Below are positions 33,014-56,814 of a stretch of 64,000 bases of DNA, piece by piece. The notes beneath the pieces were generated by a model. The model was given only the letters and a program-made list of their open reading frames with translations. It was not told where the DNA came from and did no database searches. Position 1 is the first letter of the stretch. Each line of letters starts with the position of its first letter. The DNA lies in assembly GCA_001004105.1 (NCBI GenBank), contig LCQK01000001.1, positions 102,928-166,927 of the forward strand, in the 5' to 3' direction. The position numbers and the translations under genes were made by a program. The DNA comes from Candidatus Jorgensenbacteria bacterium GW2011_GWB1_50_10. Lineage in GTDB: Bacteria; Patescibacteriota; Minisyncoccia; UBA6257; GWB1-50-10.

Positions 33014-33092
33014 AATTTCTCTGGAAAATTTCTCTGGTTTTGTTGTGTCTTCAAAATCCGTCCATATGGACGGATTTTGAAGACGTTTTGTT

Positions 33093-33785: not shown

Positions 33786-33881
33786 AATCACTTACTCGCT
33801 TTCCATTCCCGTGAGATTCCGGTAAGTTGCGCGACTCCCCGTATTTTATTAATATACTCTCCAGAACATCCGGGAGGATTA

Positions 33882-34174: not shown

Positions 34175-34248
34175 GGGCCTGTAGTATAGTGGTAATACAC
34201 CGCATTCGCATTGCGGAGACAGGGATTCGATTTCCCTCAGGTCCACCA
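34175..34248 (+). tRNA. tRNA-Ala (CGC), CCA encoded
   Basis: G3:U70 identity pair; anticodon loop TTCGCAT; 3' ...CAGGTCCACCA; preceded by palindrome GCCTGCCCGCTGGCAGGC. Confidence 0.8.
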
Positions 34249-34348: not shown

Positions 34349-35053
34349 ATGGAGAGCAGGATAATTCTCGCTGCCGACATGAGTCTTGGTGAGTGCCTGG
34401 ACTTGACCCATGCGATCGGAGAGAGGGTCTACGCGGTCAAGGTTCACGACGCCTATGACTCGAACGGCCCGACCGCGGTCAAGATGCTCCGCGAAGCCGG
34501 GGCCATGCGGGTTTGGGTGGACGCGAAGCTTCATGACATTCCGAACACGGTGAAGCGCCGTGCCAATGCGATCGCCGATTCCGGCGCCCAGATTCTCACG
34601 GTTCACGCCTCGGGTGGAATCGAGATGATGCAAGCGGCGGTCGGCGAGTTTCCTTTCGAGGTCTACGCAATCACGGTTCTCACCTCACTCACTGAAGAGG
34701 AGGTGCATCTCGCTTACGGCCAGCCATCCAAGGCGGCCGTACTCTACCTCGCGCGGCTTGCCAAGCTCGCAGGAGTTGCCGGCATCGTCTGTTCCCCGAA
34801 GGAGGTCGGTATTCTCGCCAAGCGGCCGGAACTGAAAGGCATGAAGTTCGTGGTTCCAGGCATCCGGTCGGCCGGCAAGGATAAAGGAGACCAGGAACGG
34901 GTGGATACACCGGCGGCGGCCTTGAAAGACGGCGCCGACTATCTCGTCGTCGGCCGCCAGATCACGCAGGCCTCCGACCCGGTGGCCGCACTCATTGAGC
35001 TCGAGGCGGAGATTTCCGCGGCTCTCGCTTCAATCGAAGGAGCGAAGTCATGA
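34349..35053 (+). CDS. pyrF: orotidine-5'-phosphate decarboxylase
   Basis: AADMSL...KVHDAY...DAKLHDIPNT...VVGRQI motifs; high GC. Confidence 0.8.
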   Translation: MESRIILAADMSLGECLDLTHAIGERVYAVKVHDAYDSNGPTAVKMLREAGAMRVWVDAKLHDIPNTVKRRANAIADSGAQILTVHASGGIEMMQAAVGEFPFEVYAITVLTSLTEEEVHLAYGQPSKAAVLYLARLAKLAGVAGIVCSPKEVGILAKRPELKGMKFVVPGIRSAGKDKGDQERVDTPAAALKDGADYLVVGRQITQASDPVAALIELEAEISAALASIEGAKS

Positions 35054-35784
35054 AAAGAAGACCCAACAACGGGAGAATTAATTCTCTCGAAGTATCCGGA
35101 ATGCCGCTCGCCGGGCTTCGCGGACTCCTCGCCGAAGATTTCAACGGCGACATCTCGCCAGCCGCTCTCCGGCACATTCTCACGATCTGCGACGCGCTCT
35201 GGCTCCATTCGGGCGACCCGGCTTTGCCGCACGCCGAGCTCACCTCGGGTAAGTGCAGTAACGGGTTCGTGGATGTGCTCCGCGTTCTTCAGTATCCGAA
35301 TCTCTGCGAGCTTCTGGCGTGTCAGCTTGTCATGAAGCTCGAGGCGACCTACCGCGGGCCTATTCACTGGGCGGTTGGTTCGGACCACGCCGGCGCGACC
35401 ATTTCCTACGCCGTCGCGAACTGGCTTCTCGCAAAGCACGCTTTCACGGAGAAGGGGCTGGACAAGACCCAACTCTGGAAGCGGTTCGTGATTGAGCCGG
35501 AGGAGGTCGTTCTTCAGGTGGAAGACCTCGTGACCACGCTCGGTACGCTCCGGGCGGTGCGGGAAGGCATCCGGCAGGGGAATCCGCATCCGGTCACGTT
35601 CGCTCCCGTCGTTCTCACGCTCGTCCATCGTTCGGACGTCTACGAGTTCGAGGGCGCGCCCATCGTCTACCTCGCGCACTACGACATCCAAACATGGTCG
35701 CCCGAGGAATGCCCTCTTTGCAAGGCCGGCTCCGTTCGGCTCCGGCCCAAGGAGAACTGGGCCAAACTCACGGGACAGGAGTAG
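35050..35784 (+). CDS. pyrE: type I phosphoribosyltransferase, probable orotate phosphoribosyltransferase
   Basis: PRPP-binding motif VLQVEDLVTTLGT; ATGA overlap with pyrF. Confidence 0.5.
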   Translation: MKRRPNNGRINSLEVSGMPLAGLRGLLAEDFNGDISPAALRHILTICDALWLHSGDPALPHAELTSGKCSNGFVDVLRVLQYPNLCELLACQLVMKLEATYRGPIHWAVGSDHAGATISYAVANWLLAKHAFTEKGLDKTQLWKRFVIEPEEVVLQVEDLVTTLGTLRAVREGIRQGNPHPVTFAPVVLTLVHRSDVYEFEGAPIVYLAHYDIQTWSPEECPLCKAGSVRLRPKENWAKLTGQE

Positions 35785-35806
35785 TTCTGTCTCAAGCAAA
35801 AAGCAA

Positions 35807-35841
35807 GCGGCACCAGAAAATCGGTGCCGCTTTCGCTTTTT
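35807..35841. terminator. bidirectional terminator (GCGGCACC-agaaaatc-GGTGCCGC)
   Basis: hairpin plus flanking T run; the same element recurs inverted at 36728-36765. Confidence 0.65.
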
Positions 35842-35853
35842 CTTCATCGCTCG

Positions 35854-36135
35854 TCACTCCTCTTTCCCTGTGTTCGGAATGGCCGGGCCGCAGCCGCCGG
35901 GATGCCGGTCATAGTAGGCGCGGCAGTTTTTCAAGAACAATTCCCGCGTCATAGTGATGGTGCCCGCGTTTAGCGATTCCGGCAGGAGCCGGTAGAGCTC
36001 CGAATCCAAAATCCAGCACCGGTCGTTGTTGTGCGCGTTCCGGTGGCGCCGGATGGCGTTGCGGAGCCGCATCACCTCCCTCCGCAGTTCCGGAGCCACC
36101 ATCGGCTTCAGATCCCTATCCTGCAGTCGCATCAT
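35854..36135 (-). CDS. hypothetical protein (high GC)
   Basis: AAGGAGA RBS upstream on the minus strand; 93 aa. Confidence 0.5.
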   Translation of the reverse strand: MMRLQDRDLKPMVAPELRREVMRLRNAIRRHRNAHNNDRCWILDSELYRLLPESLNAGTITMTRELFLKNCRAYYDRHPGGCGPAIPNTGKEE

Positions 36136-36186
36136 AAATTCTCCTTGAAGGTCCGATTTCCAAACTACCGCAAGTTGTTTGCCTTT

Positions 36187-36215
36187 TCAAGGACAGGTTG
36201 GTATAGTCCGAGGCG
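36187..36215 (+). promoter_or_regulatory. promoter TTGCCT-17-TATAGT
   Basis: near-identical copy at 36765-36793. Confidence 0.5.
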
Positions 36216-36240
36216 GAAACCTTAACAAGGAGGGTGCGAA

Positions 36241-36688
36241 TATGACCTGGAAACAGAGAGCAGCGATGATTTCGATCATCATCGCCGGAATCTTCGCCTT
36301 GGTCGCCTTGGTTCGGTTCGTGCCCGACGGCAGCGCTTCGGACGCGAATCCGCCGGGGAAAGCCGAGCCGAGGAACACCTGGGTACTCGCCATAGTGGCT
36401 GAATACCAATCGCGAGTGTCCATTGAAGATGATTACGTCGACGTGGACGTCGTCTGGGAGATCGCCGAAGGTCCCGATACCAGGCGGCTCATGTTCGGTA
36501 CGATCAATCGCCTCCGGGTGGCGAAGAGCAACCCGCGCCTCAAGGAGCTCGTGCCGGGTGCGGCAGTTTTCATCCCCATGTCAGTGGACAAACTCACCTA
36601 CGATAGCGAAAAGTACACGAGTTACACGAGGGACTACAACAGCGAGCCGCTCACCGAGTTCCGGCTCTACCGGGAGTATCACCGGTAG
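36241..36688 (+). CDS. membrane-anchored hypothetical protein
   Basis: AAGGAGGG RBS; TM ISIIIAGIFALVALV. Confidence 0.55.
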
Positions 36689-36727
36689 GACGCTCTAGAG
36701 CGAGCGACACAGCACAAGCAAAAAGCA

Positions 36728-36765
36728 AGCGGCACCGATTTTCTGGTGCCGCTTTGTGCTTTTAT
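36728..36765. terminator. terminator, inverted copy of the 35807 element
   Basis: GCGGCACC-gattttct-GGTGCCGC plus T run; shares the upstream 22-mer caagcaaaaagcaagcggcacc. Confidence 0.65.
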
Positions 36766-36793
36766 TTGCCTTTTCAAAAATTGGTTGGTATAG
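36765..36793 (+). promoter_or_regulatory. promoter TTGCCT-17-TATAGT (duplicate)
   Basis: seen directly. Confidence 0.5.
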
Positions 36794-36825
36794 TCCGGGG
36801 TGGAACCTCTCACCAAGGAGAAGTT

Positions 36826-37158
36826 ATGAAAGCCGTTGCAACGGCCAAACCGCAGGCCTACACCCCACGCTTTCCGGAGATGTACAAGTTTCTCTTCGAG
36901 GTATACTCCAGGGCGATGAAGCCGGGAGCGAAGGACGCGGAGGTGTGGTGTGAGAGAGCGAAGACGCTTTTCTTGACCTTGAGCACGCTCAAGGAAGAAG
37001 GTGTTCTTCCGATTTCTTTCACCCAGACTTTCTGGGAAGATGTGCAAGCCGTGATGAAGACGGTGCACGGCCGAGTGAAGCCGGTCGAGCTCACGGAGAC
37101 CCAGTCCTATCTCACCTTCGGCATCTCCAACCTCCGCCGCGATTTCGGCGGCGACTGA
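36826..37158 (+). CDS. hypothetical protein
   Basis: AAGGAGAAG RBS; 110 aa. Confidence 0.55.
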   Translation: MKAVATAKPQAYTPRFPEMYKFLFEVYSRAMKPGAKDAEVWCERAKTLFLTLSTLKEEGVLPISFTQTFWEDVQAVMKTVHGRVKPVELTETQSYLTFGISNLRRDFGGD

Positions 37159-37209
37159 ACAACAACCGAGCAACTCATCAGGGTAAGCAAAAATTTGGGA
37201 GGCAAACGT

Positions 37210-37371
37210 ATGGCCCCGTCCCAGCAAACCAAAACCCTTACCTTGGATGAGGTAAGGGCGCAGGTGGAAGAGTGGGAGGAAATAGCCAGGAACTACGAGA
37301 ACGTCCCTGACAGCCTCGCAAGGAATCTCAAGGAAGCGTGTGCGGTAATACGAGCTTTCCTTAGAAGATAA
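37210..37371 (+). CDS. small hypothetical protein (53 aa)
   Basis: GGGAGG RBS 8 nt upstream of ATG 37210; below the ORF-track size cutoff. Confidence 0.35.
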   Translation: MAPSQQTKTLTLDEVRAQVEEWEEIARNYENVPDSLARNLKEACAVIRAFLRR

Positions 37372-37429
37372 ACTTGAGCAACCAGCAACGGGGCAAGCGC
37401 GTGCGCTTGCCCTGAAGTATTTTATAAAA

Positions 37430-37458
37430 TTGATCATTTTGAAAATTTGAGGCAGAAT
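37430..37458 (+). promoter_or_regulatory. island promoter module TTGATC-17(ATTTTGAAAATTTGAGG)-CAGAAT
   Basis: same spacer and -10 recur at 37809, 38288, 40637 and 44965. Confidence 0.5.
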
Positions 37459-37464
37459 ACTATT

Positions 37465-37808
37465 GACGCAAGCCAGCGCAGTTGACCGAGAGTGTGCAGA
37501 CGCGTATGCGCCCTCTCCTCTGAGCGCCGAGACGGGTGGGTATAAGTGTCCGGCTAAGCCCGTAAAAAAGCTGGCAACAAAGAAACCTTGAAAGCCGCGG
37601 CTTGGGGAAGTGCAAGTATATCGCGCCCCTTGAAGGACGGCTATCAAACCAAATAGCCGCTCTTGGATAAAATGACTTTGTTCGGGTGGCTGGAGCCTGA
37701 ACTCTGCCGTACTCCCCGCGGTGAGTATTGGACAGCTATCGGTTCTCTCTGAGAACCGTGCATCTTGGGCCCGATGAGACGTTACGTCAAACGGGCCCAG
37801 TTTTTTTA
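37465..37808 (+). ncRNA. candidate structured non-coding RNA (~340 nt) of unknown class
   Basis: own promoter (37430-37458) and strong terminator (GGGCCCG...CGGGCCC + T8 at 37767-37808); all three + frames closed; several internal hairpins (GAGAACCGATAGC/GGTTCTC). Confidence 0.35.
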
Positions 37809-37857
37809 TTGTCCATTTTGAAAATTTGAGGCAGCAGAACAAAATTGGTTATTGGAA

Positions 37858-37873
37858 CAATTCGCGCGAATTG
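37858..37873. promoter_or_regulatory. perfect 16 bp palindrome CAATTCGCGCGAATTG (operator copy 1)
   Basis: at -40 to -25 relative to TGGTATAAT (37882-37890) of the ArsR-like gene; identical 24-mer at 38238-38261. Confidence 0.6.
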
Positions 37874-37902
37874 GCGAAAGATGGTATAATGAGTTCAAGA
37901 AT

Positions 37903-38166
37903 ATGAAACGGTGGACGATTGTTTTTAAGGCGTTATCTAATGTCAATCGGCTCAAAATCATAAGACTTTTGTCAAAAGGCGGCGCTTTGAATGTCGGCGG
38001 CATTGCCGAGGAACTCAATATTTCGCCGAAAGCCACCTCCAAGCATTTGATAATTCTTCATAACTTGGACGTTCTGGAAAGCGTAGGGAAAGAAGGTCAC
38101 GTTTTGTATTCGCTGAACACGAAAATGCCGCGGGATTTTCGCAGAGTTTTGGGGAACTTTAATTAA
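37903..38166 (+). CDS. ArsR/SmtB-family transcriptional regulator
   Basis: HTH SNVNRLKIIRLLSKGGALNVGGIAEELNISPKATSKHLIILHNL; start ATG 37903 just after the extended -10. Confidence 0.7.
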   Translation: MKRWTIVFKALSNVNRLKIIRLLSKGGALNVGGIAEELNISPKATSKHLIILHNLDVLESVGKEGHVLYSLNTKMPRDFRRVLGNFN

Positions 38167-38240
38167 GCAGTTTGCCCGGGGCGCGCTCCTTATCCTATCC
38201 TAACCTTGTCTTACCTTTCTTACTCTAAGGCCTTAGGGAA

Positions 38241-38256
38241 CAATTCGCGCGAATTG
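38241..38256. promoter_or_regulatory. CAATTCGCGCGAATTG palindrome (operator copy 2)
   Basis: identical to 37858-37873 with 4 bp of flank each side. Confidence 0.6.
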
Positions 38257-38339
38257 GCGAATGGTTGGTGAATGGGGAAGGGGCAAATTGTCCGTTTCTC
38301 GAAAATGAGGCAGAATGAGGGGATAAATTAGTTATCGTA

Positions 38340-38366
38340 TGATAACCATTGACAAATTGGTTATCA
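38340..38366. promoter_or_regulatory. inverted repeat TGATAACCA-N9-TGGTTATCA spanning a TTGACA hexamer (candidate TA operator)
   Basis: seen directly; the P3 promoter module lies at 38288-38316. Confidence 0.5.
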
Positions 38367-38384
38367 GTTATATTCTTTGTATAT

Positions 38385-38639
38385 ATGGATAAAAAACTCT
38401 TGTCGACGAGTGAAGCCGCAAAAATTTTAGGTATCAGCCGGGTAGCGGTATTGAAGAGAATTAAAAAGAATCAGCTTAAAGCCAGGAAGGTTGGGAAGAA
38501 TTATGTCATTGCTAAAGAAGATCTGCCGATTGAGGCAGGGGGTGAAATCACCGAAATTAAGAAAAAACTAATTGATGCAGCCATAAAAAAAGCATTAACC
38601 GACTATCGGGAAACTCTGGAATTGTTGGGGAAAGAATAA
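38385..38639 (+). CDS. HTH (excisionase/MerR-type) DNA-binding protein, probable antitoxin of Doc
   Basis: LSTSEAAKILGISRVAVLKRIKKNQL HTH; 12 nt upstream of doc. Confidence 0.6.
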   Translation: MDKKLLSTSEAAKILGISRVAVLKRIKKNQLKARKVGKNYVIAKEDLPIEAGGEITEIKKKLIDAAIKKALTDYRETLELLGKE

Positions 38640-38650
38640 ATTGATCGTTT

Positions 38651-39067
38651 ATGCAGCAGCTTTCAATAACAGAGGTTGAGTATGTTGCTCATCGTTTGGC
38701 AAAAGCATGGTTAAGCTGGGATGAGCCGATTCCCGATTTCGACACAAGATTCCCAAACATTTTAGAAAGCTGTATTGCCACCCCATTCCAATCGTTTGGC
38801 AAAAAAGCGGCCTACTCCGGCCTTATCGGCAAGGGGGCGATTTTGTTTTACTTGATGATTAAAAATCATCCTTTCCGTAACGGGAATAAAAGGATCGCCG
38901 TGACTACTCTTCTGGTTTTTCTGTATAAAAACAAAAAATGGCTCCGTGTTGATGAACGCGAATTTTACAATTTTGCCAAGTGGGTCGCGGAGAGCAGCCC
39001 CAAGTTTAGGATTGAAACTATTGCCGCCATTTCAAAATTCATAAAGACGTATATGATAAAAATATGA
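38651..39067 (+). CDS. doc: Doc/Fic-family toxin
   Basis: Fic/Doc motif HPFRNGNKRIAVTT (HxFx(D/N)GNKR). Confidence 0.75.
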   Translation: MQQLSITEVEYVAHRLAKAWLSWDEPIPDFDTRFPNILESCIATPFQSFGKKAAYSGLIGKGAILFYLMIKNHPFRNGNKRIAVTTLLVFLYKNKKWLRVDEREFYNFAKWVAESSPKFRIETIAAISKFIKTYMIKI

Positions 39068-39161
39068 AAATAAAATATTTGTTTGTCCAAAAAGGCCGGA
39101 AGTTGATAGTAAAGGATTGGAGAAGGTAGGCTAAGGTTATTAAGGTAAATCCTTGACTTTT

Positions 39162-39191
39162 TTGATACGATTTGCTAAATTAGCATAAAAT
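39162..39191 (+). promoter_or_regulatory. promoter TTGATA-N17-TAAAAT with palindrome TGCTAAATTAGCA in the spacer
   Basis: palindrome 39173-39185 directly upstream of abiEi. Confidence 0.5.
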
Positions 39192-39200
39192 ACTAACTTT

Positions 39201-39788
39201 ATGAAATGGATAGATTTTGAGCGAAAAATAAAAGCAAAGAACATCAAGCTTTTTACCCCCCTCGACGTGCAAAAATTTTTAGGGAGAACGAAAATAGCCA
39301 CGCGTTTTTTAATCCACCGTTTGAAAAAGAACGGGTATATTGTGAGCGTAAAACGCGGCTTGTATCAATTGTCCGATGAACAAATCCCCGATGTATATGT
39401 CGCTAACAGGATTTACGCCCCCTCATATGTATCTTTGGAATTCGCGCTGTCATACTACGGCGTTATTCCCGAGACGGTGTATGAAATTACCTCGGTGACG
39501 ACAAAAACCACCCGTCGGTTCGAAACGCTTGGCAAGATTTTTTCTTATCACAAGATAAAAAAGACGGCCTACACCGGCTACGCCATTCACAGTCAGAACG
39601 GGATGCGTTTCTATATCGCCGATGCCGAAAAAGCGTTCGTTGATGCAAGCTACTTGCGCCTGATGCGGAAACAAAAGCCGATTTCCCGTTTTCGCAAAGA
39701 AAAAATCAATCGCGCCAAGTCGTTAAAATACGCTTCGCTCTTCAATAATGAAAAACTTACCAGCATCATTAAAACAACGCTCCAATGA
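39201..39788 (+). CDS. abiEi: AbiEi-family antitoxin/transcriptional regulator
   Basis: 195 aa N-terminal wHTH-like; ATGA overlap with the downstream DUF1814 nucleotidyltransferase. Confidence 0.6.
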   Translation: MKWIDFERKIKAKNIKLFTPLDVQKFLGRTKIATRFLIHRLKKNGYIVSVKRGLYQLSDEQIPDVYVANRIYAPSYVSLEFALSYYGVIPETVYEITSVTTKTTRRFETLGKIFSYHKIKKTAYTGYAIHSQNGMRFYIADAEKAFVDASYLRLMRKQKPISRFRKEKINRAKSLKYASLFNNEKLTSIIKTTLQ

Positions 39789-40546
39789 TTTCGGTGGAAT
39801 CGCTTGAAAAATTGAGCAGGCGGTATCAAGCAGGAATATTTCCCAATATAATCAGGGAATATTTTCAGCATGTTTTTCTGGGAGAGTTGTATAAGATGGA
39901 AGGCGCGGAGAAAATGCTCTTTAAAGGAGGCACCGCCTTGCGGATTGTGTATGGCAGTCCGCGTTTTTCCGAGGACTTGGATTTTTCCTTGTTCGGTGTC
40001 GCGCAGAACGAGCTGAAATCTTTCATTGAAGGGGTTTTTGCGCGGGTTCTGGCGGAGATAGAGCACGTCGGCATAAAAGTCGAACTTGGAGAAAAAATCG
40101 GCCCTACGCGCGGGGGATATTTCGGCGTCGCGACATTCCGCATGCTTGAATATCCGCCAGTTGCCGTGGAGATAAACGTGTCGGCGCGCAACGGCAGGGA
40201 CATGCGGGGAGAAATAGACAGCGTCGCGGGCGATTTTGTGCCGACTTACACCGTCGTTCACTTGCCGCAGAACGAGCTTGTGGAAGAAAAAATTTTCAGC
40301 GCGCTCCGCGAGCGCAAGAAACCGCGCGATTTCTACGATCTTTATTTCATCATGCGCAAAGCGATGCTCTCGCCTGATCAGAAAAAACGGCTGGCCGGAA
40401 TAAAGGAAGAAATAACCGCAGCCGCGGGACGCGTTGATTTTCGCGGCGAGTTGGGCGCCCTCCTGCCGGTGGACCAGCAGCCGGTTATCCGCGATTTCCC
40501 GGCCATGCTTGAACGCGAGCTTAATAGGCAGTTAAGTGGAATATGA
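39785..40546 (+). CDS. abiEii: AbiEii/AbiGii-family nucleotidyltransferase toxin
   Basis: KGGTALRIVYGSPRFSEDLDF motif typical of DUF1814/AbiEii. Confidence 0.75.
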   Translation: MISVESLEKLSRRYQAGIFPNIIREYFQHVFLGELYKMEGAEKMLFKGGTALRIVYGSPRFSEDLDFSLFGVAQNELKSFIEGVFARVLAEIEHVGIKVELGEKIGPTRGGYFGVATFRMLEYPPVAVEINVSARNGRDMRGEIDSVAGDFVPTYTVVHLPQNELVEEKIFSALRERKKPRDFYDLYFIMRKAMLSPDQKKRLAGIKEEITAAAGRVDFRGELGALLPVDQQPVIRDFPAMLERELNRQLSGI

Positions 40547-40636
40547 AAACAAGAGATCTGCCGAAAGGCCGGAAGTTGATAGTAAAGGATTGGAGGAATT
40601 AGAAAACCGCCGAAAAGGCGGTTTTCTAATTGTAAA

Positions 40637-40665
40637 TTGAGCATTTTGAAAATTTGAGGCAGAAT
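40637..40665 (+). promoter_or_regulatory. island promoter module TTGAGC-17-CAGAAT (leaderless to ATG 40672)
   Basis: spacer ATTTTGAAAATTTGAGG identical to 37436-37452. Confidence 0.5.
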
Positions 40666-40671
40666 GAGGGT

Positions 40672-41373
40672 ATGAGTAATAATCCATTGCAAAAATTTAA
40701 TGATCTTCTGGAGAAGGTGGATTTAGTTGGTTATCGCAAGAGGTATCAACCAATCAAGATAGTAGAAATGGACTTACCCAAAGAAATTCAAGCAGTAAGC
40801 CTTCTCTACGAAATTTACTGGGATAAAAAGATGTTCGTCAATTTTGATGAATTTTACCGAATATATTTAAAGCTTTACAAGCATAAATTAGAAGAATTCA
40901 GGAAAAACAAAGCCTTTATGTGCAAAAACTGTTTTTATAGAGGCTTAGAGGCAAGGATTTATAGAACATGGGCGAGTATTATTACACAGATTCACGCAGC
41001 TTATGTTGCTGAATCAGTTTTTGTTAGTGGCACCGTTAGGATGTCAGAAGCCCTAGATCGAGCCGGCGCTGATTTCCAAGTCCAATATAAGAAAAAAACA
41101 TTAAATTATCAGGTTAAAAAAATCTCTTTTAGTAGAGAGGTTAGGAAAGAAAAACCTAAATCTAAGCAACCACTGGAAGGCGAATTTTTCGATATAACTT
41201 ACGACGTTCCTAGTGATAGCTATTTTAGAAATCCGAAGAGGAAAAACGGAAAATACAGATTGCCTTATTTAAGATTTAAAGAAAATAAAAATCTAAAACG
41301 ACTACCTAACGGCTTTGTTGTATTCACGCCGCTGATTTTTGAGGAAAAAAAGAAGGAGATAGATGCAATTTAG
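40672..41373 (+). CDS. hypothetical protein, candidate restriction endonuclease partner of the LexA-MTase fusion
   Basis: 233 aa; convergent with the methylase, 4 bp overlap at the 3' ends; no confident nuclease motif; call rests on context only. Confidence 0.3.
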   Translation: MSNNPLQKFNDLLEKVDLVGYRKRYQPIKIVEMDLPKEIQAVSLLYEIYWDKKMFVNFDEFYRIYLKLYKHKLEEFRKNKAFMCKNCFYRGLEARIYRTWASIITQIHAAYVAESVFVSGTVRMSEALDRAGADFQVQYKKKTLNYQVKKISFSREVRKEKPKSKQPLEGEFFDITYDVPSDSYFRNPKRKNGKYRLPYLRFKENKNLKRLPNGFVVFTPLIFEEKKKEIDAI

Positions 41374-42896
41374 ATTAAATTTGGTGTTGTTTTAACTTTA
41401 TTAAGCCATTTTTCAGCCAAATTTACATAATCTGGGTTTATTTCGAAGCCAATGTAATTTTGGTCTAATTCTTTTACTGCCACACATTCTGAACCGCTGC
41501 CAACAAACGGTATTAATATAACTCCTTCTTTTTCGGGAGCAGATGATTTAATAAGTTTTCTTGTTAATTCAAGAGGTTTTTGGGTGGGGTGTTTTATTAC
41601 ATTGTGTTTTGAATGCTCTTGTAGTTTTTGCGGTTCAAAAACATCGTTACAGGTTTTACATAAAAACCATCTTTCAACCATTCCTGCGCCGCCGGCTAGT
41701 GCCGCCGTTTTTATGACGTCTCTCGGTAAAGCGCCATTCTTGTGGAATTTATAAATCGTTTCTTTGCCGTTTTTACTGAATCTTCCAGGCGTACCTTTTC
41801 TTATTTTTCCCGCGGCGCCATTTAAAAATCCCTCTGTATATGGTTCTCTCACCTCGTCTTTGTTGAAAATTGGCTTGTTTTTCCAAGCGCAAACTATGGC
41901 TTCATGGCTCCTTTGCCAAAAATTTAAAGAAGCCACGTTTTTGTTAGTGTAATGCCAAATTAGCCAACGCTTATTTATAGGTATTTCTACAGATAAATAA
42001 GCTAAAATTTCACTAAAACCGTAGATAAAAAGCGTTGCAGTTGGTTTCATAACTCTTACACTTTCATTTATCCAACTTTTGCACCAATTAACATATTCAT
42101 TTAATTCTCTCTTATCGGTATTATTGCCAAAATCTTTCCCGATGTTATAGGGTGGATCAACAATAATCACATCACAGCTGTTATCCGGTAACTTTCTTAA
42201 CTCTTCCACTGCATCCCCGCAGATAATTTGATTAAGAGGTAAACGCTTATATTTTCTATCTACAGTTGGGCGTTGTAGAGATATTTCCTGGAAACCCTTT
42301 TCCGGGCTCTTGATTACATCTAAGACAACCCCTTGTATTGCGAATTCCCTATTCTTTCTAACAATTATCGGTTCAAAGTTTTTATTTGCCGGTTGGAGGC
42401 GGATTTGATTTCTTTCCTTGTAAAAAGTTTTTAAAGTTGTCTCGTAGTTGTCTATTAGCGCCACGATTTTCTGACCATTCTCTGCAAACCCCTGTTGTTT
42501 GACTAATATAATATCTCCGTCGAGGATGTTTTCTTCAATCATGCTCTCACCAGCAACACGCAGGGCATAAACTTCTCCGTTTTTCGGGATTTTGGTCTGG
42601 GGGACAGCGATTGTTTCTTTTGTGCCTTCGTATGTCTCCACTGGCCGGCCGGCAGCGATAGTTCCAAGTAGCGGAATTTGGACCATTGGTTCTATTTCGC
42701 GTACGGAGAGAGAACGTGCCCGTCCCGGGAGTTTTTCTAGACGGCCGGCGCCGCGAAGGTTTTGAAGGTGTTCGTGAATGGTAGAAACTGACCTCCTAAA
42801 ATGGCGCGCCATCTCTTCTATAGAGGGTGGCACATCGTGTTTGGAGGAGTATTCCCTCATAAAGCGGATAATCTGTTCTTGACGTAGGGTTGGCAT
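41370..42896 (-). CDS. fusion protein: LexA-type repressor (wHTH + Ala-Gly site + S24 Ser/Lys autopeptidase) joined to a beta-class N6A/N4C DNA methyltransferase
   Basis: N-terminus QIIRFMREY...EEMARHFRRSVSTIHEHLQNLRGAG; cleavage site GTIAAGRP; VAGESMIEENILDGDIILV and TTLKTFYKE; then CDVIIVDPPYNIG (motif IV) and LIPFVGSGSECVAV (motif I) at the C-terminus. Confidence 0.8.
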   Translation of the reverse strand: MPTLRQEQIIRFMREYSSKHDVPPSIEEMARHFRRSVSTIHEHLQNLRGAGRLEKLPGRARSLSVREIEPMVQIPLLGTIAAGRPVETYEGTKETIAVPQTKIPKNGEVYALRVAGESMIEENILDGDIILVKQQGFAENGQKIVALIDNYETTLKTFYKERNQIRLQPANKNFEPIIVRKNREFAIQGVVLDVIKSPEKGFQEISLQRPTVDRKYKRLPLNQIICGDAVEELRKLPDNSCDVIIVDPPYNIGKDFGNNTDKRELNEYVNWCKSWINESVRVMKPTATLFIYGFSEILAYLSVEIPINKRWLIWHYTNKNVASLNFWQRSHEAIVCAWKNKPIFNKDEVREPYTEGFLNGAAGKIRKGTPGRFSKNGKETIYKFHKNGALPRDVIKTAALAGGAGMVERWFLCKTCNDVFEPQKLQEHSKHNVIKHPTQKPLELTRKLIKSSAPEKEGVILIPFVGSGSECVAVKELDQNYIGFEINPDYVNLAEKWLNKVKTTPNLI

Positions 42897-42918
42897 ATTG
42901 ATTTTCGGGTTTTTTTCG

Positions 42919-42935
42919 GTTATAATTATTATAAC
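42919..42935. promoter_or_regulatory. perfect palindrome GTTATAAT-n-ATTATAAC (candidate LexA-like operator) over the -10 region of the fusion gene
   Basis: 8 bp arms, 23-39 nt upstream of start codon 42896 on the minus strand; contains two TATAAT hexamers. Confidence 0.6.
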
Positions 42936-42999
42936 AATCCACTAAGCCCAAAATCACGGGGCACTGTGGATAAAAAGGTCGTAAAATTAAAGGAAAAAC

Positions 43000-43290
43000 A
43001 TGACTAAAAGAGGAAAAATCGGACAGGCTAGGCATGACGCAAAAGTTCAGCAACGTTTGGATCTTTATAAGGATAAAGGTTTTAGGGTTAAAGCTGATTT
43101 GCCGGGTCGAGCTAAACCTCAAAAAATTGGTGGTAGGATCCCCGATATTATAGCTAAAAAGGGTAAAAAGTTGGTTGTTGAAGAAGTCGAAACTCGCTCA
43201 ACCAAAGATACTGATAAAACACAGCAAGAAGCCCTTAGAAAAGGCACGAAGGAACGCGGTGGTACTTTCAAGGTAATTGTGGCTAAATAG
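43000..43290 (+). CDS. hypothetical basic protein (possible degenerate PD-(D/E)xK fold)
   Basis: RIPDIIAKKGKKLVVEEVETR resembles the PD...ExK block of the next gene; weak. Confidence 0.4.
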   Translation: MTKRGKIGQARHDAKVQQRLDLYKDKGFRVKADLPGRAKPQKIGGRIPDIIAKKGKKLVVEEVETRSTKDTDKTQQEALRKGTKERGGTFKVIVAK

Positions 43291-43299
43291 TTATAAGAT

Positions 43300-43518
43300 A
43301 TGAATATTAAAACATGTATCGCCTGTGGCGGTATCATCATTTCGTTGTCAATATCTACTTGCGAAAAGTGTTTGCTGGCATTACCTCCTGACTTGCCGAG
43401 TGTTGATCATTCCACAACAACGTCAACCTCGACACGTACAATTTTCGTTTCCGGAGCTACTGGCTCAACCGCAGTTTCTATTTCAGCTACAACCACTCAA
43501 CCACCCAATCTCGGTTAA
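43300..43518 (+). CDS. small hypothetical protein (CxxC...CxxC N-terminus, Ser/Thr-rich tail)
   Basis: ORF only; AT-rich. Confidence 0.3.
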   Translation: MNIKTCIACGGIIISLSISTCEKCLLALPPDLPSVDHSTTTSTSTRTIFVSGATGSTAVSISATTTQPPNLG

Positions 43519-43558
43519 TAACTAACCCGCCGCGGTCCGGAGGAGTATAAATATAAAA

Positions 43559-44056
43559 ATGAACCCCGAATCAATGTTAAAAGGCCGGATGGCCGAAACG
43601 TTATTTGAAGAACTGATACGGCAGTCGGGGAATATTGTTTATCGTTTCGGATATGAAGCGATTGTTCAAAATTTGACGCAACTTGAAGAAAAATTTGACA
43701 GATATAGCGAGGTAGGTGAAAGAATCCGGGCTATTCCGGATTTTATTGTTATAGATAAAGCCGGCAAGCCGGAGTTTGTTGAGGTAAAATTCCGATGGAA
43801 GCCAGAACTTCACGAAGACGATTACAAAAAATTGGAAAAGATAGAAAAGTTATGGAGCCCAAAAATAGTTTTTGTAAACTGCTGGGAGCAGCCGTATTTC
43901 AGAATTTCAGAGCCACCTTATGTTAAAAACAAGAAACTAGTCACAAAAACCCTTTTAGATGAAAAGAATTGGAAAATTGATAAGGAACTTTATGATGAGT
44001 ACGAAAGTTTAGTTCATCGTTATTTAACGCCAACGCTTGTACCGCCAAAAAATTAG
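43559..44056 (+). CDS. PD-(D/E)xK nuclease-fold protein
   Basis: IPDFIVIDKAGKPEFVEVKF (PD-x9-ExK); 165 aa. Confidence 0.55.
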   Translation: MNPESMLKGRMAETLFEELIRQSGNIVYRFGYEAIVQNLTQLEEKFDRYSEVGERIRAIPDFIVIDKAGKPEFVEVKFRWKPELHEDDYKKLEKIEKLWSPKIVFVNCWEQPYFRISEPPYVKNKKLVTKTLLDEKNWKIDKELYDEYESLVHRYLTPTLVPPKN

Positions 44057-44143
44057 GAGAGTAGAGATTAGCTGATAGGTTGTAGATGATAGGTGATAGT
44101 TAACAATTAACGGCTGATGACAAATTAGGAGAATAGATTTATA
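44041..44143. repeat. boundary repeat copy A (83 nt identical to 45390-45472) carrying a 53 bp insert flanked by 18-19 bp direct repeats
   Basis: ccgccaaaaaattaggagagtag core; ATTAGGAGAGTAGAGATTA (44052-44070) and ATTAGGAGAATAGATTTA (44124-44141) flank gctgatagg...gctgatgacaa. Confidence 0.65.
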
Positions 44144-44231
44144 GAATTGACAAGAGAAGTATTATAATTTAAAACTTTGACAGAACACCCAGGCTGAATA
44201 GCCATCACGTTTTCACTCGGAGGAAGCAGAC

Positions 44232-44906
44232 ATGACCACGCTGGAGATTAAAGGCAGTATCCCGGCTATTGTGACGAACAAGGACGGTCTTTACGACGGC
44301 GACCTCGTCGGCTACTTCCGGGCCGTCTTCAACCACGCCGAGAACCTCTGCAATCCGTACCACAACTTCCGGCACATGTGCCACGTGCTCTGGTTGTGCT
44401 ACGAGGCCAGCGTCTTCTACGTGGAGATGTCCTCGCGGGACATGCGCAACCTGCTCATCGCGGCTCTCTTCCACGACTTCGACCACACCGGCCGGAGCGA
44501 CCCTGATGCCGCAAACATCAAGAGGGCCATCGATGGTTTGCGGCGGCACTTGCTTCCCGAGGACAAGAGGGAGCTCGGCAAAATCGAAGCCATCATCCGG
44601 GCGACCGAGTTCCCCTACCGTGTCTCCTTGGAACGGCTGGACCTCCAGAGCCAGATCATCCGCGACGCAGACATGAGTCAGGCACTAACCGTGGCCTGGA
44701 TTCAGCAGGTCGTCTTCGGTCTTGCGACCGAGTGGAAGAGAACACCGCTCGAGGTTCTCCGGGCTCAGGATCCCTTCCACCGCAACCTCAAGCTCCACAC
44801 GGCATGGGCCAGGCAGATGTTCCCGCAGGCGGCGATCGAATCCAAGATCGCTGAGGCGAACGAGCTGGTCGAGCTCTTGAGCGGAGAGCCGGTGGCAGCA
44901 GCCTGA
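44232..44906 (+). CDS. HD-domain phosphohydrolase
   Basis: H...HD motif (YHNFRHMCHV, LFHDFDHTG); ~64 % GC. Confidence 0.7.
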   Translation: MTTLEIKGSIPAIVTNKDGLYDGDLVGYFRAVFNHAENLCNPYHNFRHMCHVLWLCYEASVFYVEMSSRDMRNLLIAALFHDFDHTGRSDPDAANIKRAIDGLRRHLLPEDKRELGKIEAIIRATEFPYRVSLERLDLQSQIIRDADMSQALTVAWIQQVVFGLATEWKRTPLEVLRAQDPFHRNLKLHTAWARQMFPQAAIESKIAEANELVELLSGEPVAAA

Positions 44907-44929
44907 AACCGCAGGCTTCACAGCACAGC

Positions 44930-44963
44930 GGAGGGCGACCCACAAGTCGCCCTCTTTCTTTTT
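44930..44963 (+). terminator. rho-independent terminator
   Basis: GAGGGCGAC-ccacaa-GTCGCCCTC + TTTCTTTTT; near-identical design at 47131. Confidence 0.7.
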
Positions 44964-44964
44964 A

Positions 44965-44993
44965 TAAAATCCCTTACGATTTTGAGGTAGAAT
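44965..44993 (+). promoter_or_regulatory. island promoter module (..GATTTTGAGG TAGAAT), leaderless to ATG 45000
   Basis: TAGAAT at 44988-44993; start codon 6 nt downstream. Confidence 0.45.
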
Positions 44994-44999
44994 AGATTT

Positions 45000-45368
45000 A
45001 TGGACTCCAAAAGGTTCAAGGAATTGGTGGCTAAGGGAATCAGCGAAATCCCGGCGCGGTTTTTGGAAAAATTGAAAAACGTGGCAATTTTGGTCGCGGA
45101 GGAGCCCTCCGCCGAACAACTCGAGAACTTAGGCATAAAAAGGGAAAGTGGCGACACTCTTCTCGGACTTTACGAGGGCGTCTCCAACCTCGAAGGCGGC
45201 CACACTCACCGCGGTTTCCCGGACCGGATCACCATTTTCCGCAAACCGGTCCTTGCCGAGGCCGCCGGGGAGGACGACGTGCCCCGCGTCGTTGCCGAAA
45301 CGGTTCGGCACGAGATCGCCCATCATTTCGGGATGGATGAGGAAGACATTGAACGCGCCCGAAAATAG
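45000..45368 (+). CDS. zincin-like metallopeptidase family protein
   Basis: HEIAHHFG (HExxH) near the C-terminus; 122 aa. Confidence 0.6.
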   Translation: MDSKRFKELVAKGISEIPARFLEKLKNVAILVAEEPSAEQLENLGIKRESGDTLLGLYEGVSNLEGGHTHRGFPDRITIFRKPVLAEAAGEDDVPRVVAETVRHEIAHHFGMDEEDIERARK

Positions 45369-45389
45369 TAGAATAAACCCATAACTAAA

Positions 45390-45472
45390 ACCGCCAAAAA
45401 ATTAGGAGAGTAGAGATTAGCTGATAGGTTGTAGATGATAGGTGATAGTTAACAATTAACGGCTGATGACAA
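45390..45472. repeat. boundary repeat copy B
   Basis: 83/83 identity with 44041-44123. Confidence 0.7.
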
Positions 45473-45500
45473 GTTGGAGTAAATAATATAGTATACAAAT

Positions 45501-45683
45501 ATGGTGAGAATTGCACAGGAAAAGAGCGATACGAGACTTCGGGCGGAAATGGCTCAAGTAGCAGCTGAGGTTCTTAAGGACCCCGATTTCGGAAGGAAAT
45601 TAAGCCCGGAGGCCAAAAAACGCCTTTTGTCTGTATCCGAAAAAGATTTATCAAAAGCCGTTTCTTTATCTGAAATTAAGTAA
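45501..45683 (+). CDS. probable antitoxin (small helical protein) of the RelE/ParE pair
   Basis: 60 aa; 14 nt upstream of the toxin gene. Confidence 0.45.
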   Translation: MVRIAQEKSDTRLRAEMAQVAAEVLKDPDFGRKLSPEAKKRLLSVSEKDLSKAVSLSEIK

Positions 45684-45697
45684 ACCCCAGCCGTTTT

Positions 45698-45958
45698 ATG
45701 GATTGGGTTGTTAAGCTAACGGAAGACGCGCAGAAAGACCTCAACACCTTGGATGGTAAGGTGCGGGGGCGGATTTTGGAAAAGCTGAAATGGATTAGTG
45801 AAAACTTTGATGATATTACACCTCTACCTCTTACGGGGGAGTTTACGGGTTTTTATAAATTACGGGTAGGCGATTGGCGGGTATTTTACAAAGTTGATTG
45901 GGCGGCACATATTATTTTCGCTGTGTATATCGGGCATCGAGATTCTGCTTATAGATAG
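45698..45958 (+). CDS. RelE/ParE-family type II toxin
   Basis: KLRVGDWRVFYKVDW...IIFAVYIGHR, typical RelE/ParE C-terminal half. Confidence 0.7.
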   Translation: MDWVVKLTEDAQKDLNTLDGKVRGRILEKLKWISENFDDITPLPLTGEFTGFYKLRVGDWRVFYKVDWAAHIIFAVYIGHRDSAYR

Positions 45959-45976
45959 TGTATAAATTTGCTAGTT

Positions 45977-46012
45977 CCGCCAAAAAATTAGGAGAGTAGC
46001 AGAATAGATTTT
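45977..46012. repeat. boundary repeat copy C (short form lacking the 53 bp insert)
   Basis: ccgccaaaaaattaggagagtag + cagaatagattt. Confidence 0.55.
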
Positions 46013-46022
46013 TAAAAATGGA

Positions 46023-46060
46023 ACGAGCCCGTGAGGTAACTCCTCGCAGGCTCGTTTTGC
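46023..46060. terminator. bidirectional terminator
   Basis: GAGCCCGTGAGG-taac-TCCTCGCAGGCTC with T runs on both sides. Confidence 0.5.
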
Positions 46061-46088
46061 TTCTCTGCTCTTCGAGCGGTCGTGTTCT

Positions 46089-46607
46089 TCAGTTGGGTCC
46101 GCCGAAACCGGTTGGCACGGCGTGGGCGTCCCAGAAGTGCTCGTTCGCCACCGTCCCGTGGGACATAATGACTTCAAACTCGCCCCAGATGGGATAGCCG
46201 CCGTCGCGCCAGCAGGGACTGGTCGTCGGCGACGGGCCGACCCAGACGATGCGGTAGTGCCACGTCTCGCCGGAACCATCGGGAACCTGGCCGTTCCACT
46301 GGTTATCGGTCCAGGCGTCGCAGTTCCAGTTTGCGCCGTGGAAGCGGGCTTCGTCCCAGGCGCGCGACCAGCTCATCTTGAGATGGTCGTTGCCGTAGGT
46401 CGGGTCGCCCCAGACCGTGCCGTCGAGATTCCGGTCGACGCCGTCAGCCGGGCCGACGAAGACGCGGGCACGGTAGTTGTAGCCGAACTCGTCAAAGCCG
46501 TTCGCTCCTGCGTGGCTGAAGTTCGGCGCTGCAGCGGGTTGGGGATCCTCCGGCAGCTCGCAAGCCAAGACAAAGGCAAGAAGCACCGGTACGATGATGC
46601 GTTTCAC
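46089..46607 (-). CDS. lipoprotein, hypothetical (Trp/Gly-rich, high GC)
   Basis: MKRIIVPVLLAFVLAC lipobox. Confidence 0.6.
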   Translation of the reverse strand: MKRIIVPVLLAFVLACELPEDPQPAAAPNFSHAGANGFDEFGYNYRARVFVGPADGVDRNLDGTVWGDPTYGNDHLKMSWSRAWDEARFHGANWNCDAWTDNQWNGQVPDGSGETWHYRIVWVGPSPTTSPCWRDGGYPIWGEFEVIMSHGTVANEHFWDAHAVPTGFGGPN

Positions 46608-46761
46608 TCAACACCTCCTGAAAGAGGACCGGTTAAAGAATAAACAAAAGAGTTTATTTTGGCAATACCCCTGATGACCTCTTGACTCTTAGCGTCCTCT
46701 GCGCTTTTATATTTTTAGTCCTAATCAACTTCACTACACACTACCAGCGTGCGGAGGAGCC

Positions 46762-47109
46762 GTGTTCATCCTTTTTCTCACACTCGAAGGGCTCATTGCC
46801 CACGCGAATGAGCATCCGGAAAGGGAGTGGCTCGAGTGTTCACTCTTCTTCCTGGACTGCGAGCCGGGGAAACTCAAAGAGCACCAGCGGCTTGACGAAG
46901 CAATCCGGTACCTGGAGCGGAGGGGCCGCGTCTCCTGGAGGAGAGAAGTAAATCCCTTCGCCAACCACGACCTCTTGAACCAGCTGCTTAAAAGCAGCTT
47001 GCTCAGGCCCTTCAACGCCGGTCTCGCGGCGCGAGACGACCCGGAGTTCCTCAGAGAAGCGGTTCTCGCCGCAAACAACGGCAACCACCGCGTGGAAGTG
47101 GTGGTGTAG
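46762..47109 (+). CDS. hypothetical protein (high GC)
   Basis: 115 aa ORF followed by a strong terminator. Confidence 0.45.
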   Translation: MFILFLTLEGLIAHANEHPEREWLECSLFFLDCEPGKLKEHQRLDEAIRYLERRGRVSWRREVNPFANHDLLNQLLKSSLLRPFNAGLAARDDPEFLREAVLAANNGNHRVEVVV

Positions 47110-56764: not shown

Positions 56765-56814
56765 ACGAGCTCGATTTATAAAGAAACCCGCGCAATGCGC
56801 GGGTTTCTTTTGTT

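Follow-up and report, generated by a model that had tools for sequence, protein, structure and literature searches.

Copied promoter-like fragments and gene relics in a defence and addiction cluster of a Candidatus Jorgensenbacteria genome: probable traces of serial recombination

Background

Defence islands at hot spots bring together AbiE pairs, type II restriction-modification systems and further toxin-antitoxin pairs. Chromosomal integrons, which also contain toxin-antitoxin pairs, consist of an IntI-type integrase, an attI site and an array of small promoterless cassettes, mostly in the same orientation, with hairpin-forming attC repeats between them. Doc, AbiEii and ParE are toxins restrained by upstream partners. 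Autoregulated repressors of the ArsR/SmtB family are small proteins of the winged-helix type whose own promoter is overlapped by a palindrome, and methyltransferases such as M.SsoII and M.EcoRII repress their own gene through an N-terminal DNA-binding domain. In bacteria with frequent leaderless transcription the −10 box has been reported to lie 6–8 nt before the start codon (PMC6028130).

Here we describe a locus that resembles each of these systems in part. It belongs to Candidatus Jorgensenbacteria bacterium GW2011_GWB1_50_10, a member of the candidate phyla radiation that lives in groundwater, is uncultivated and was found in Rifle-aquifer samples, and was analysed within a stretch of 64 kb with a G+C content of 0.498 (contig LCQK01000001.1, positions 102,928 to 166,927), here called the window. 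The TruB protein encoded here has 100% identity to that of Candidatus Jorgensenbacteria bacterium GW2011_GWA1_48_13. An earlier note on this DNA had described a defence and addiction island at 37430–46080, composed of five leaderless cassettes driven by one shared promoter module and linked to a nearby tRNA-Ala. Our analysis indicates that the island probably arose by serial recombination into a resident promoter region, and that the repeated module is best regarded as a copied piece of that promoter and a recombination junction, not as the common driver of the cassettes.

The genes were assigned with Pfam and PADLOC, and 58 open reading frames (ORFs) of the window were scanned for integrase, transposase and recombinase domains. 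Both recombinase genes and copies of the module were sought within the 64-kb window. Loci fetched for comparison include contigs L012, L013, L015, L018, L019 and L020–L033, among others.

Results and Discussion

Copies of the module and the fragments between units

The module has the form TTGAnC-17-CAGAAT (ATTTTGAAAATTTGAGGCAG). Three copies agree exactly over 20 nt, and the 17-mer ATTTTGAAAATTTGAGG occurs exactly at 37436, 37815 and 40643. When the flanks are taken into account the family has four members, starting at 37427, 37806, 38285 and 40634. The first, P1 (37427–37458), reads TTGATC, 17 nt, CAGAAT and comes right after a terminator at 37389–37414. In P2 (37806–37845) a 3-nt insertion breaks the CAGAAT box, and an alternative TTGAAA-16-CAAAAT scores 9/12. 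P3 (38285–38321) reads TTGTCC, 17 nt, CAGAAT, followed by GAGGG, and P4 (40634–40671) has its CAGAAT box at 40660–40665, 6 nt before the ATG at 40672. P3 and P4 have in common the exact 15-mer GAGGCAGAATGAGGG, for which the expected number is 0. All copies are on the plus strand and, within the window, are confined to 37.4–45.0 kb, that is, to the island. The existence of a repeated module, as proposed in the earlier note, is thus borne out, with exact copies far beyond chance.

A further module-like sequence precedes the zincin gene (44978–44999, plus strand), with TAGAAT at 44988–44993, 6 nt before the ATG at 45000. Its likeness to the module (TTTTGAGGTAGAAT, 44980–44993) is at chance level, with 7 hits in the window against 7.4 in shuffled sequences. 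The same stretch carries AGAATAGATTT, which forms a second repeat family with exact copies at 44130, 44989 and 46001 (0.02 expected), and the zincin copy therefore ties two real sub-families together. Terminator hairpins precede P1, P2, P4 and the zincin copy.

Other short fragments are repeated along with the module. A 39-nt repeat on the plus strand, at 39091–39129 and 40564–40602, coincides with the final 33 nt of a MazE/AbrB-like gene of 58 aa that is intact in the metagenome contig L015, the first copy being 97% identical to the last codons of that gene. The window thus retains the 3' end of a displaced gene as two relics, and these flank the AbiE genes on both sides. The second relic is followed by a 15-bp terminator hairpin at 40597–40631 (−19.7 kcal/mol, z −5.25).

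A different repeat, 86 nt long, is found on the plus strand at 44041–44140 and 45390–45494 in copies that are 99% identical, and the 30-nt core of the repeat is present once more at 45970. The first copy starts in the last codons of a 165-aa gene and continues into AGAATAGATTT, while the second is followed by ATGACA-17-TAGTAT. Together the gene-end repeats at 44035, 45384 and 45970, each opening with the last codons of the 165-aa gene, delimit the units of this part of the island: they enclose first the HD and zincin genes and then the ParE pair. The third copy (45970–46011, plus strand), joined to CAGAATAGATTT, forms an orphan module with which the toxin-antitoxin and restriction core ends on the right. 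The body of the 86-nt repeat is C-poor, rich in stop codons in all frames, and lies between direct repeats AAATTAGGAGA(G/A)TAG; the site at 45970 looks body-less, as if a 62-nt piece had been inserted at the others.

The left part of the region contains duplications of its own. The terminator hairpin after the pyrE-like gene (35793–35844), which marks the left limit of the accessory region, is repeated at 36715–36766 with the loop inverted; the stems at 35805–35832 and 36727–36754 are the same, and the 8-nt loop is reverse-complemented between the copies. Two of the four small high-GC genes located here have a duplicated promoter and leader with Shine-Dalgarno sites (36175–36218 and 36762–36805). 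The terminator and promoter-leader duplicates flank the small high-GC genes on both sides.

An indication of how the module has been used comes from L015, a contig of 1665 bp from a Joint Genome Institute (JGI) metagenome. In L015 the left flank of the 40634 copy, including the terminator, is joined to the right flank of the 37806 copy and the ArsR operator, at 96–98% identity, and the cargo that follows is different: the intact MazE-like gene, RadC and a protein of unknown function. Since L015 joins the flanks of two copies and then continues with other genes, the modules appear to act as junctions for the exchange of cargo. A metagenome scan for the 20-mer gave three matches, of which only L015 is related. 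The match in L016 lies within a NagA-like coding sequence and was dismissed as chance, as was that in L014, which has nothing in common with the window beyond the pattern itself. The viral collections yielded one chance match for the module, and none for the MazE-relic repeat or the operator repeat.

A mosaic accessory region at a synteny breakpoint

Comparison with related loci indicates that about 11 kb of the window, roughly from 35.85 to 47.18 kb, form an accessory region specific to the strain or species, located between a truB/tRNA-Ala block and a DUF6938 block. The position is a synteny breakpoint, as the relatives share the flanking blocks and have none of the island genes. On the left, the gene order GatA ... 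GDH, truB is kept in L018 and L019 (TruB 84–87% identical) up to window position 33788; in both of them tRNA-Ala(cgc) comes after truB, with a NAD-kinase gene in between, and beyond the tRNA their content differs. That NAD-kinase gene is missing from the window. On the right, L012 and L013 (DUF6938 67–69% identical) align to the window only from 47183 onward, where homology with the relatives restarts, and upstream of this point they have other genes, including in one case an MTES_1575 nuclease. Synteny with L018 picks up again at 56812. When the island proteins were compared by tblastn with the loci of these four relatives, no match was found for any of them, and a scan of a genome collection with DUF6938 returned distant relatives only, at 44–49% identity.

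The earlier note's expectation that the island would vary in presence among related genomes therefore holds, in that it is absent at the syntenic position from every relative examined; the claim of a shared promoter is a separate matter, taken up below. The accessory region is broader than the 37430–46080 of the note, and the core of selfish and defence units extends over 38.3–46.0 kb.

The region is also heterogeneous in composition. The GC content at third codon positions (GC3) is 0.55–0.61 in the flanking housekeeping genes. A high class (0.68–0.83) comprises pyrF, the small genes of unknown function, the HD and zincin genes and the 172- and 115-aa genes, and a low class (0.31–0.44) comprises the TaqI-like, methyltransferase, AHJR-like, 165-aa and HTH_17 genes and the ParE pair. 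Because the three classes interleave along the region, many small acquisitions are indicated.

Rearrangement around the island is extensive. Between 33.8 and 56.8 kb the window differs from L018 and L013 by large rearrangements, the L21-to-CysS block is inverted relative to L013, and only this genome has the DUF6938-to-enolase block (47.2–56.3 kb) placed between truB and the Na/H exchanger.

The ArsR unit and its twin operators

Between P2 and P3 lies a gene for an ArsR-family winged-helix regulator (37903–38166, plus strand; 87 aa, cysteine-free; Pfam HTH_5 1.1e-10). The start is placed at the ATG at 37903 because the homologues are 87 aa long; this ATG is 12 nt past the gene's own TGGTATAAT. 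The upstream operator unit (37854–37891, plus strand) consists of the perfect palindrome CAATTCGCGCGAATTG at 37858–37873, followed by TGGTATAAT at 37882–37890, and a downstream unit at 38237–38274 (plus strand) contains the palindrome again at 38241–38256. In at least 8 other contigs the same perfect 16-bp palindrome occurs on both sides of ArsR homologues that are 62–79% identical, and the downstream copy is kept in L020–L033. As the flanking palindromes are retained in such divergent contigs, the pair is presumed to represent the operators of a conserved unit and not insertion scars. The regulator had been listed among the island genes in the earlier note; its conservation as a unit in other bacteria of the candidate phyla radiation does not support its classification as island cargo.

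What follows the second palindrome differs among the contigs, and in many cases is a toxin, antitoxin or nuclease gene. In L020 it is Zincin_1, with AbiEi relics nearby, and the product is 47% identical to the zincin of the window and encoded directly after the ArsR unit. In L031 the 58-aa MazE/AbrB-like gene occupies this place, in L029 a MazG-like gene (by sequence inspection), in L033 an MTES_1575 nuclease and Fic, and in L021 a tRNA and MiaA. P3 in the window occupies the position at which the relatives L029, L031 and L033 have a TGnTATAAT box after the downstream operator. A small ArsR-type repressor with an operator on both sides, found across divergent lineages beside variable and often toxic cargo, is one of the more original by-products of this work.

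Predicted promoter activity and leaderless expression

The likeliest role of the repeated module is that of a modest promoter of the sigma-70 type, TTGnnn-17 nt-C/TAGAAT. The earlier note proposed that five leaderless cassettes start from it. That picture applies to two genes at most, the TaqI-like gene at 40672 and the zincin gene at 45000, the only cases in which the −10 box of the module is 6 nt before a credible ATG; the other copies precede non-coding DNA, genes with promoter-like sites of their own or an ORF not called in the assemblies. P1 is followed by about 345 nt without a credible ORF. The HTH-Doc genes start 68 nt past their module copy and have a TTGACA-16-TATTCT site of their own at 38349–38376. 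The copy at 46001 precedes an ORF of 59 aa that has no Pfam match, is not called in the assemblies, begins in hairpin-like sequence and overlaps the 3' end of the 172-aa gene on the opposite strand (46089–46607). The 60-aa/ParE pair has an unrelated promoter-like site, ATGACA-17-TAGTAT, 6 nt before the ATG at 45501. A −10 box 6–8 nt before an ATG is thus found at 40672, 45000 and 45501, and is missing for the copies at 37427, 37806 and 38285.

Leaderless expression, moreover, is predicted for the host as a whole and cannot be regarded as a property of the island, as had been assumed. In the window there are 11 reading frames of 100 codons or more whose ATG has a −10 box (at least 5 matches out of 6) ending exactly 7 nt upstream, compared with about 1 at other distances. 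Most are core genes, for example those at 13173, 32121, 47189 and 50350, and the signature is also seen at 4410, 16195 and 56827; other host genes have Shine-Dalgarno sites. The three island units (TaqI-like, zincin and the 60-aa/ParE pair) have the box at 6 nt instead of 7 nt. The TaqI-like and zincin transcripts would begin at or beside the ATG, in line with this habit of the host. Our literature search found no paper on leaderless expression in bacteria of the candidate phyla radiation, and the genome-wide signature matters for the prediction of gene starts in this lineage.

The DNA after P1 may encode a non-coding RNA (37460–37807, plus strand) of about 345 nt with 55% GC, ending in a strong intrinsic terminator at 37767–37807. 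Its fold z-score is only −2.2. Searches of the window and of 37300–38400 gave no Rfam match for the candidate, its short ORFs have no Pfam match, and no homologue occurs in any fetched locus.

Serial recombination and its alternatives

Taken together, these observations lead us to consider it probable that the island grew through successive recombination events in a resident promoter region. In the ancestor a promoter and a resident gene would have come after the ArsR unit, the gene being Zincin_1 (the arrangement of L020) or MazE-like (the arrangement of L031 and L015). Toxin-antitoxin and restriction units of foreign origin would then have entered the promoter region downstream of the ArsR unit in several rounds, by way of short shared sequences. 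Each round would have copied bits of the resident promoter, the terminators and the last codons of displaced genes, leaving the direct repeats seen today. The joining could have occurred through homologous recombination on short repeats, through illegitimate events after DNA uptake, or through a site-specific enzyme. A type IV pilus cluster is present at 7.8–18 kb of the window and is compatible with DNA uptake.

Several observations weigh against this explanation. With TTGAnC-17-CAGAAT the module matches the sigma-70 consensus at 8 of 12 positions, under the threshold of 9 used in our promoter scan, in which it was consequently not listed. The modules are without the TGn extension that host promoters commonly have, the −10 box of P2 is disrupted, and better promoter-like sites occur downstream of both P2 and P3. 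The zincin promoter region is only weakly similar to that of L020. As L015, with its 1665 bp, is the sole related contig with the module, the recombination history is thinly backed, and a search for population variants at the junctions, using the 53-aa gene beside P1 as query, found none in 21 strain contigs, all of which have the same arrangement.

The near-identity of the copies could also be due to selection, if the module were the binding site of a single regulator controlling a small regulon of the candidate RNA, the restriction enzyme and other units. The 17-nt spacer, which is usually free to vary, is identical in three copies and holds an 11-nt palindrome, ATTTTGAAAAT, and two DNA-binding proteins with palindromic operators are encoded in the island. 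However, the island palindromes CAATTCGCGCGAATTG and GTTATAATAATTATAAC (the latter at the methyltransferase gene, see below) are unlike the module, and the spacer palindrome is short and all A/T save for a central G. The identity also runs into flanks and gene relics, which cannot all be operators. The P2 variant with the broken −10 box is conserved in L015, which favours recent common descent over selection, and we consider a regulon of this kind unlikely.

A more ambitious proposal would treat the ArsR repressor and its twin operators as the fixed platform of a previously unrecognised cassette-accretion site in bacteria of the candidate phyla radiation. Downstream of this platform, recombination at the resident module and at the gene-end repeats would capture small cassettes of toxin, nuclease and restriction genes, with the help of a recombinase encoded elsewhere or by natural transformation, and the repressor would silence the cargo until needed. 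We regard such a scheme as distinctly unlikely.

In an integron-like alternative the repeats would be attachment sites for a recombinase outside the window, with tandem accretion of small circular cassettes at the module and the gene-end repeats. Nearly every unit does lie between direct repeats of 30–86 nt in the same orientation, two of the repeat families are present in three or four copies, in keeping with tandem accretion, two families open with the 3' end of a gene, as is often the case in attachment sites of integrative elements, and the L015 junction is what an excised circle or a reshuffled array would produce. Yet no recombinase domain was detected in the scanned ORFs of the window, in agreement with the earlier note, which had reported neither integrase nor transposase there (several of the 58 ORFs have no Pfam match at all). 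The 86-nt repeat forms no attC-like hairpin on either strand (z +0.9 and +0.6, no better than shuffled sequences), the repeat families are mutually different with no clear common core, the cassettes have their own promoter-like sites, and the ArsR palindromes are a conserved operator pair and not the scar of an insertion. Capture of cassettes in this manner is very unlikely.

The link to tRNA-Ala drawn in the earlier note would correspond to a decayed integrative element that entered at this gene together with the pyrF and pyrE-like genes and later lost its integrase. The tRNA-Ala(cgc) gene was correctly placed at 34175–34248 (plus strand) and is a conserved landmark, the region downstream of it differs among the window, L018 and L019, the island is absent from relatives, and its composition is atypical. 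The link to the tRNA, on the other hand, is weak. Within the window, the 3' end of tRNA-Ala recurs neither at the distal border nor anywhere else (at up to 3 mismatches only the tRNA itself was found, and blastn-short gave nothing longer than 14 nt), and no integrase is present, at the border or otherwise. The DNA directly after the tRNA is homologous in L018, as is the 244-aa pyrE-like gene (58% identical and likewise located after tRNA-Ala); this gene is therefore not island cargo, contrary to what had been supposed, and the variable part begins about 1.6 kb past the tRNA instead of at it. The three interleaved compositional classes likewise argue for many small events and not for one element, so that an origin of this kind is highly doubtful.

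Finally, chimeric joins at short repeats in metagenome assembly have a negligible chance of accounting for the repeats: several short-read strain contigs do end at repeat copies (37415/37418, 39120, 40568 and 44070), but the region is 99.98–100% identical in more than 20 contigs of this strain, which come from separate samples assembled independently (European Nucleotide Archive (ENA), JGI, NCBI and Logan) and read through all of the repeats.

Compared with these alternatives, serial recombination into a resident promoter region remains our preferred explanation. The locus then provides a worked example of how an uncultivated bacterium with a tiny genome may build a defence and addiction cluster without visible mobile-element machinery, in which the copied promoter, terminator and gene-end fragments constitute a readable record of recombination events.

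The TaqI-like enzyme and a LexA-methyltransferase fusion

P4 precedes the gene of a TaqI-like type II restriction endonuclease (40672–41373, plus strand; Pfam RE_TaqI 1.8e-34, PADLOC REase_II 1.3e-32). It is convergent and overlapping with the gene of a beta-class N6/N4 methyltransferase (41370–42896, minus strand), and the two have the adjacency expected of a type II system. Unmodified DNA would be the target of the TaqI-like enzyme. The window has fewer TCGA sites than expected (observed/expected 0.57), which is compatible with TaqI-like specificity, short of proof. Other 4-bp palindromes are also rarer than expected: GATC (0.40), CTAG (0.50), GTAC (0.65) and GGCC (0.70).

The methyltransferase is a fusion of LexA_DNA_bind, Peptidase_S24 and N6_N4_Mtase (1.6e-38) domains. 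Residues 3–197 correspond to a complete LexA (residues 3–194 match structure 3k2z, E 4e-31), and the Ala-Gly site, the Ser (GESM) and the Lys of the self-cleaving domain are all there. A 17-bp palindrome, GTTATAAT-A-ATTATAAC, unique in the window, covers the −10 box of the methyltransferase gene (42919–42935) and is the presumed operator of the LexA domain. We infer that the methyltransferase probably represses its own promoter through binding of the LexA domain to this palindrome. As the residues needed for self-cleavage are present, DNA damage could lift the repression, and control of the methyltransferase could thus respond to DNA damage. In the protein library, 25 or more cluster representatives show the same architecture, and our literature search found no paper on LexA-methyltransferase fusions; this recurrent family is the other of the more original by-products.

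Other genes of the region and its surroundings

Pfam and PADLOC agree with the genes named in the earlier note and define them more closely. The AHJR-like small nuclease (43000–43290, plus strand) has a weak Pfam match below the cut-off, and the 165-aa protein (43559–44056, plus strand), which has no match in the Protein Data Bank (PDB) or PADLOC, has the motif PD-x13-EVK as the sole hint of a nuclease fold. A 72-aa ORF lies between them (43300–43518, plus strand).

Addiction and defence modules dominate the cluster, as had been stated, with three toxin-antitoxin pairs in addition to the type II restriction-modification system. In each pair a small upstream partner and a toxin-family gene form one operon on the plus strand. 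An HTH_17 antitoxin-like gene (38385–38639) is followed by a Doc toxin of the Fic/Doc family (38651–39067), both identified by Pfam, the latter resembling the PADLOC candidate PDC-S23. AbiEi (39201–39788; PADLOC 8.4e-42) and AbiEii (39785–40546; Pfam 9.3e-29, PADLOC 1.4e-24) form a type IV toxin-antitoxin or abortive-infection pair, and a putative antitoxin of 60 aa (45501–45683) precedes a ParE/RelE-type toxin (45698–45958; Pfam ParE_toxin 1.9e-10). PADLOC places AbiEi/AbiEii and REase_II/MTase_II side by side, as is typical of a defence island. The remaining genes of the core, also on the plus strand, encode an HD/phosphodiesterase-like (HD/PDEase) protein (44232–44906; GC3 0.83), the gene of which has a Shine-Dalgarno site as well as a terminator (44930–44955), and the Zincin_1 metallopeptidase-like protein (45000–45368; Pfam 3.2e-24).

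On the left, the accessory region begins with four small high-GC genes of unknown function (35854–37371; 93 aa on the minus strand and 148, 110 and 53 aa on the plus strand), which are absent from relatives. On the right, it ends with two more high-GC genes of unknown function (46089–47109), of 172 aa on the minus strand and 115 aa on the plus strand. Long opposite-strand ORFs at 36679–37842 and 34939–35847 are taken to be spurious because they have no family match and are not called in the assemblies. An apparent difference of 295 bp in the contig L001 near pyrF is a scaffold gap and not a true variant.

Outside the accessory region, pyrF and the pyrE-like gene (34349–35784, GC3 0.73–0.76) follow tRNA-Ala. 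The pyrE-like gene has no Pfam match and contains a phosphoribosyltransferase-like motif; L018 has this gene but not pyrF. A perfect, spacer-free palindrome of 38 nt with arms of 19 nt is located at 33047–33084, between a gene for a tRNA-binding domain and truB. The DnaB of L018 (17626–20295, 889 aa) contains an intein with a LAGLIDADG domain, and the DnaB of the window (60920–62266, 448 aa) is intein-free.

Comparison with known systems

The island is an ordinary cluster of a known kind, devoted to defence and addiction, with no mobility genes visible in the window. It resembles defence islands at hot spots in its clustering of an AbiE pair, a type II restriction-modification system and further toxin-antitoxin pairs, as well as in its absence from relatives, its mosaic and atypical composition and its position at a synteny breakpoint. 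It differs from them in being very small, in having no integrase or transposase within 64 kb, in the spacing of its units by copied promoter-like, terminator and gene-end fragments, and in being anchored at an ArsR gene with twin operators. With chromosomal integron arrays it has in common the small units in mostly the same orientation, the toxin-antitoxin pairs and the repeats between units. In contrast to integrons, the window contains no IntI-type integrase or attI site, the repeats are without attC-like hairpins and belong to several unrelated families, and the units have promoter-like sites and terminators of their own, unlike promoterless cassettes.

The regulators show a similar combination of familiar and unfamiliar traits. 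The ArsR protein resembles other autoregulated repressors of the ArsR/SmtB family in its small size, its winged helix and the palindrome that overlaps its promoter, but it is cysteine-free, with no recognisable metal site, and a second perfect copy of the operator lies downstream of the gene, before a gene that varies among lineages. The methyltransferase shares with the M.SsoII/M.EcoRII type an N-terminal DNA-binding domain and a palindrome overlapping its own promoter, whereas its N-terminal part is a complete LexA, consisting of a helix-turn-helix and the self-cleaving S24 domain. The predicted leaderless genes agree with known cases, including GeneMarkS-2 group C and the toxin-antitoxin transcripts of Mycobacterium tuberculosis (PMC6028130, PMC8485053, PMC3898074), in the −10 box 6–8 nt before the start, in the use of ATG starts and in the presence of toxin-antitoxin genes in the leaderless set. 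They differ from these cases in that the host belongs to the candidate phyla radiation and the signature is a prediction from sequence only, with the host peak at 7 nt and the three island units at 6 nt.

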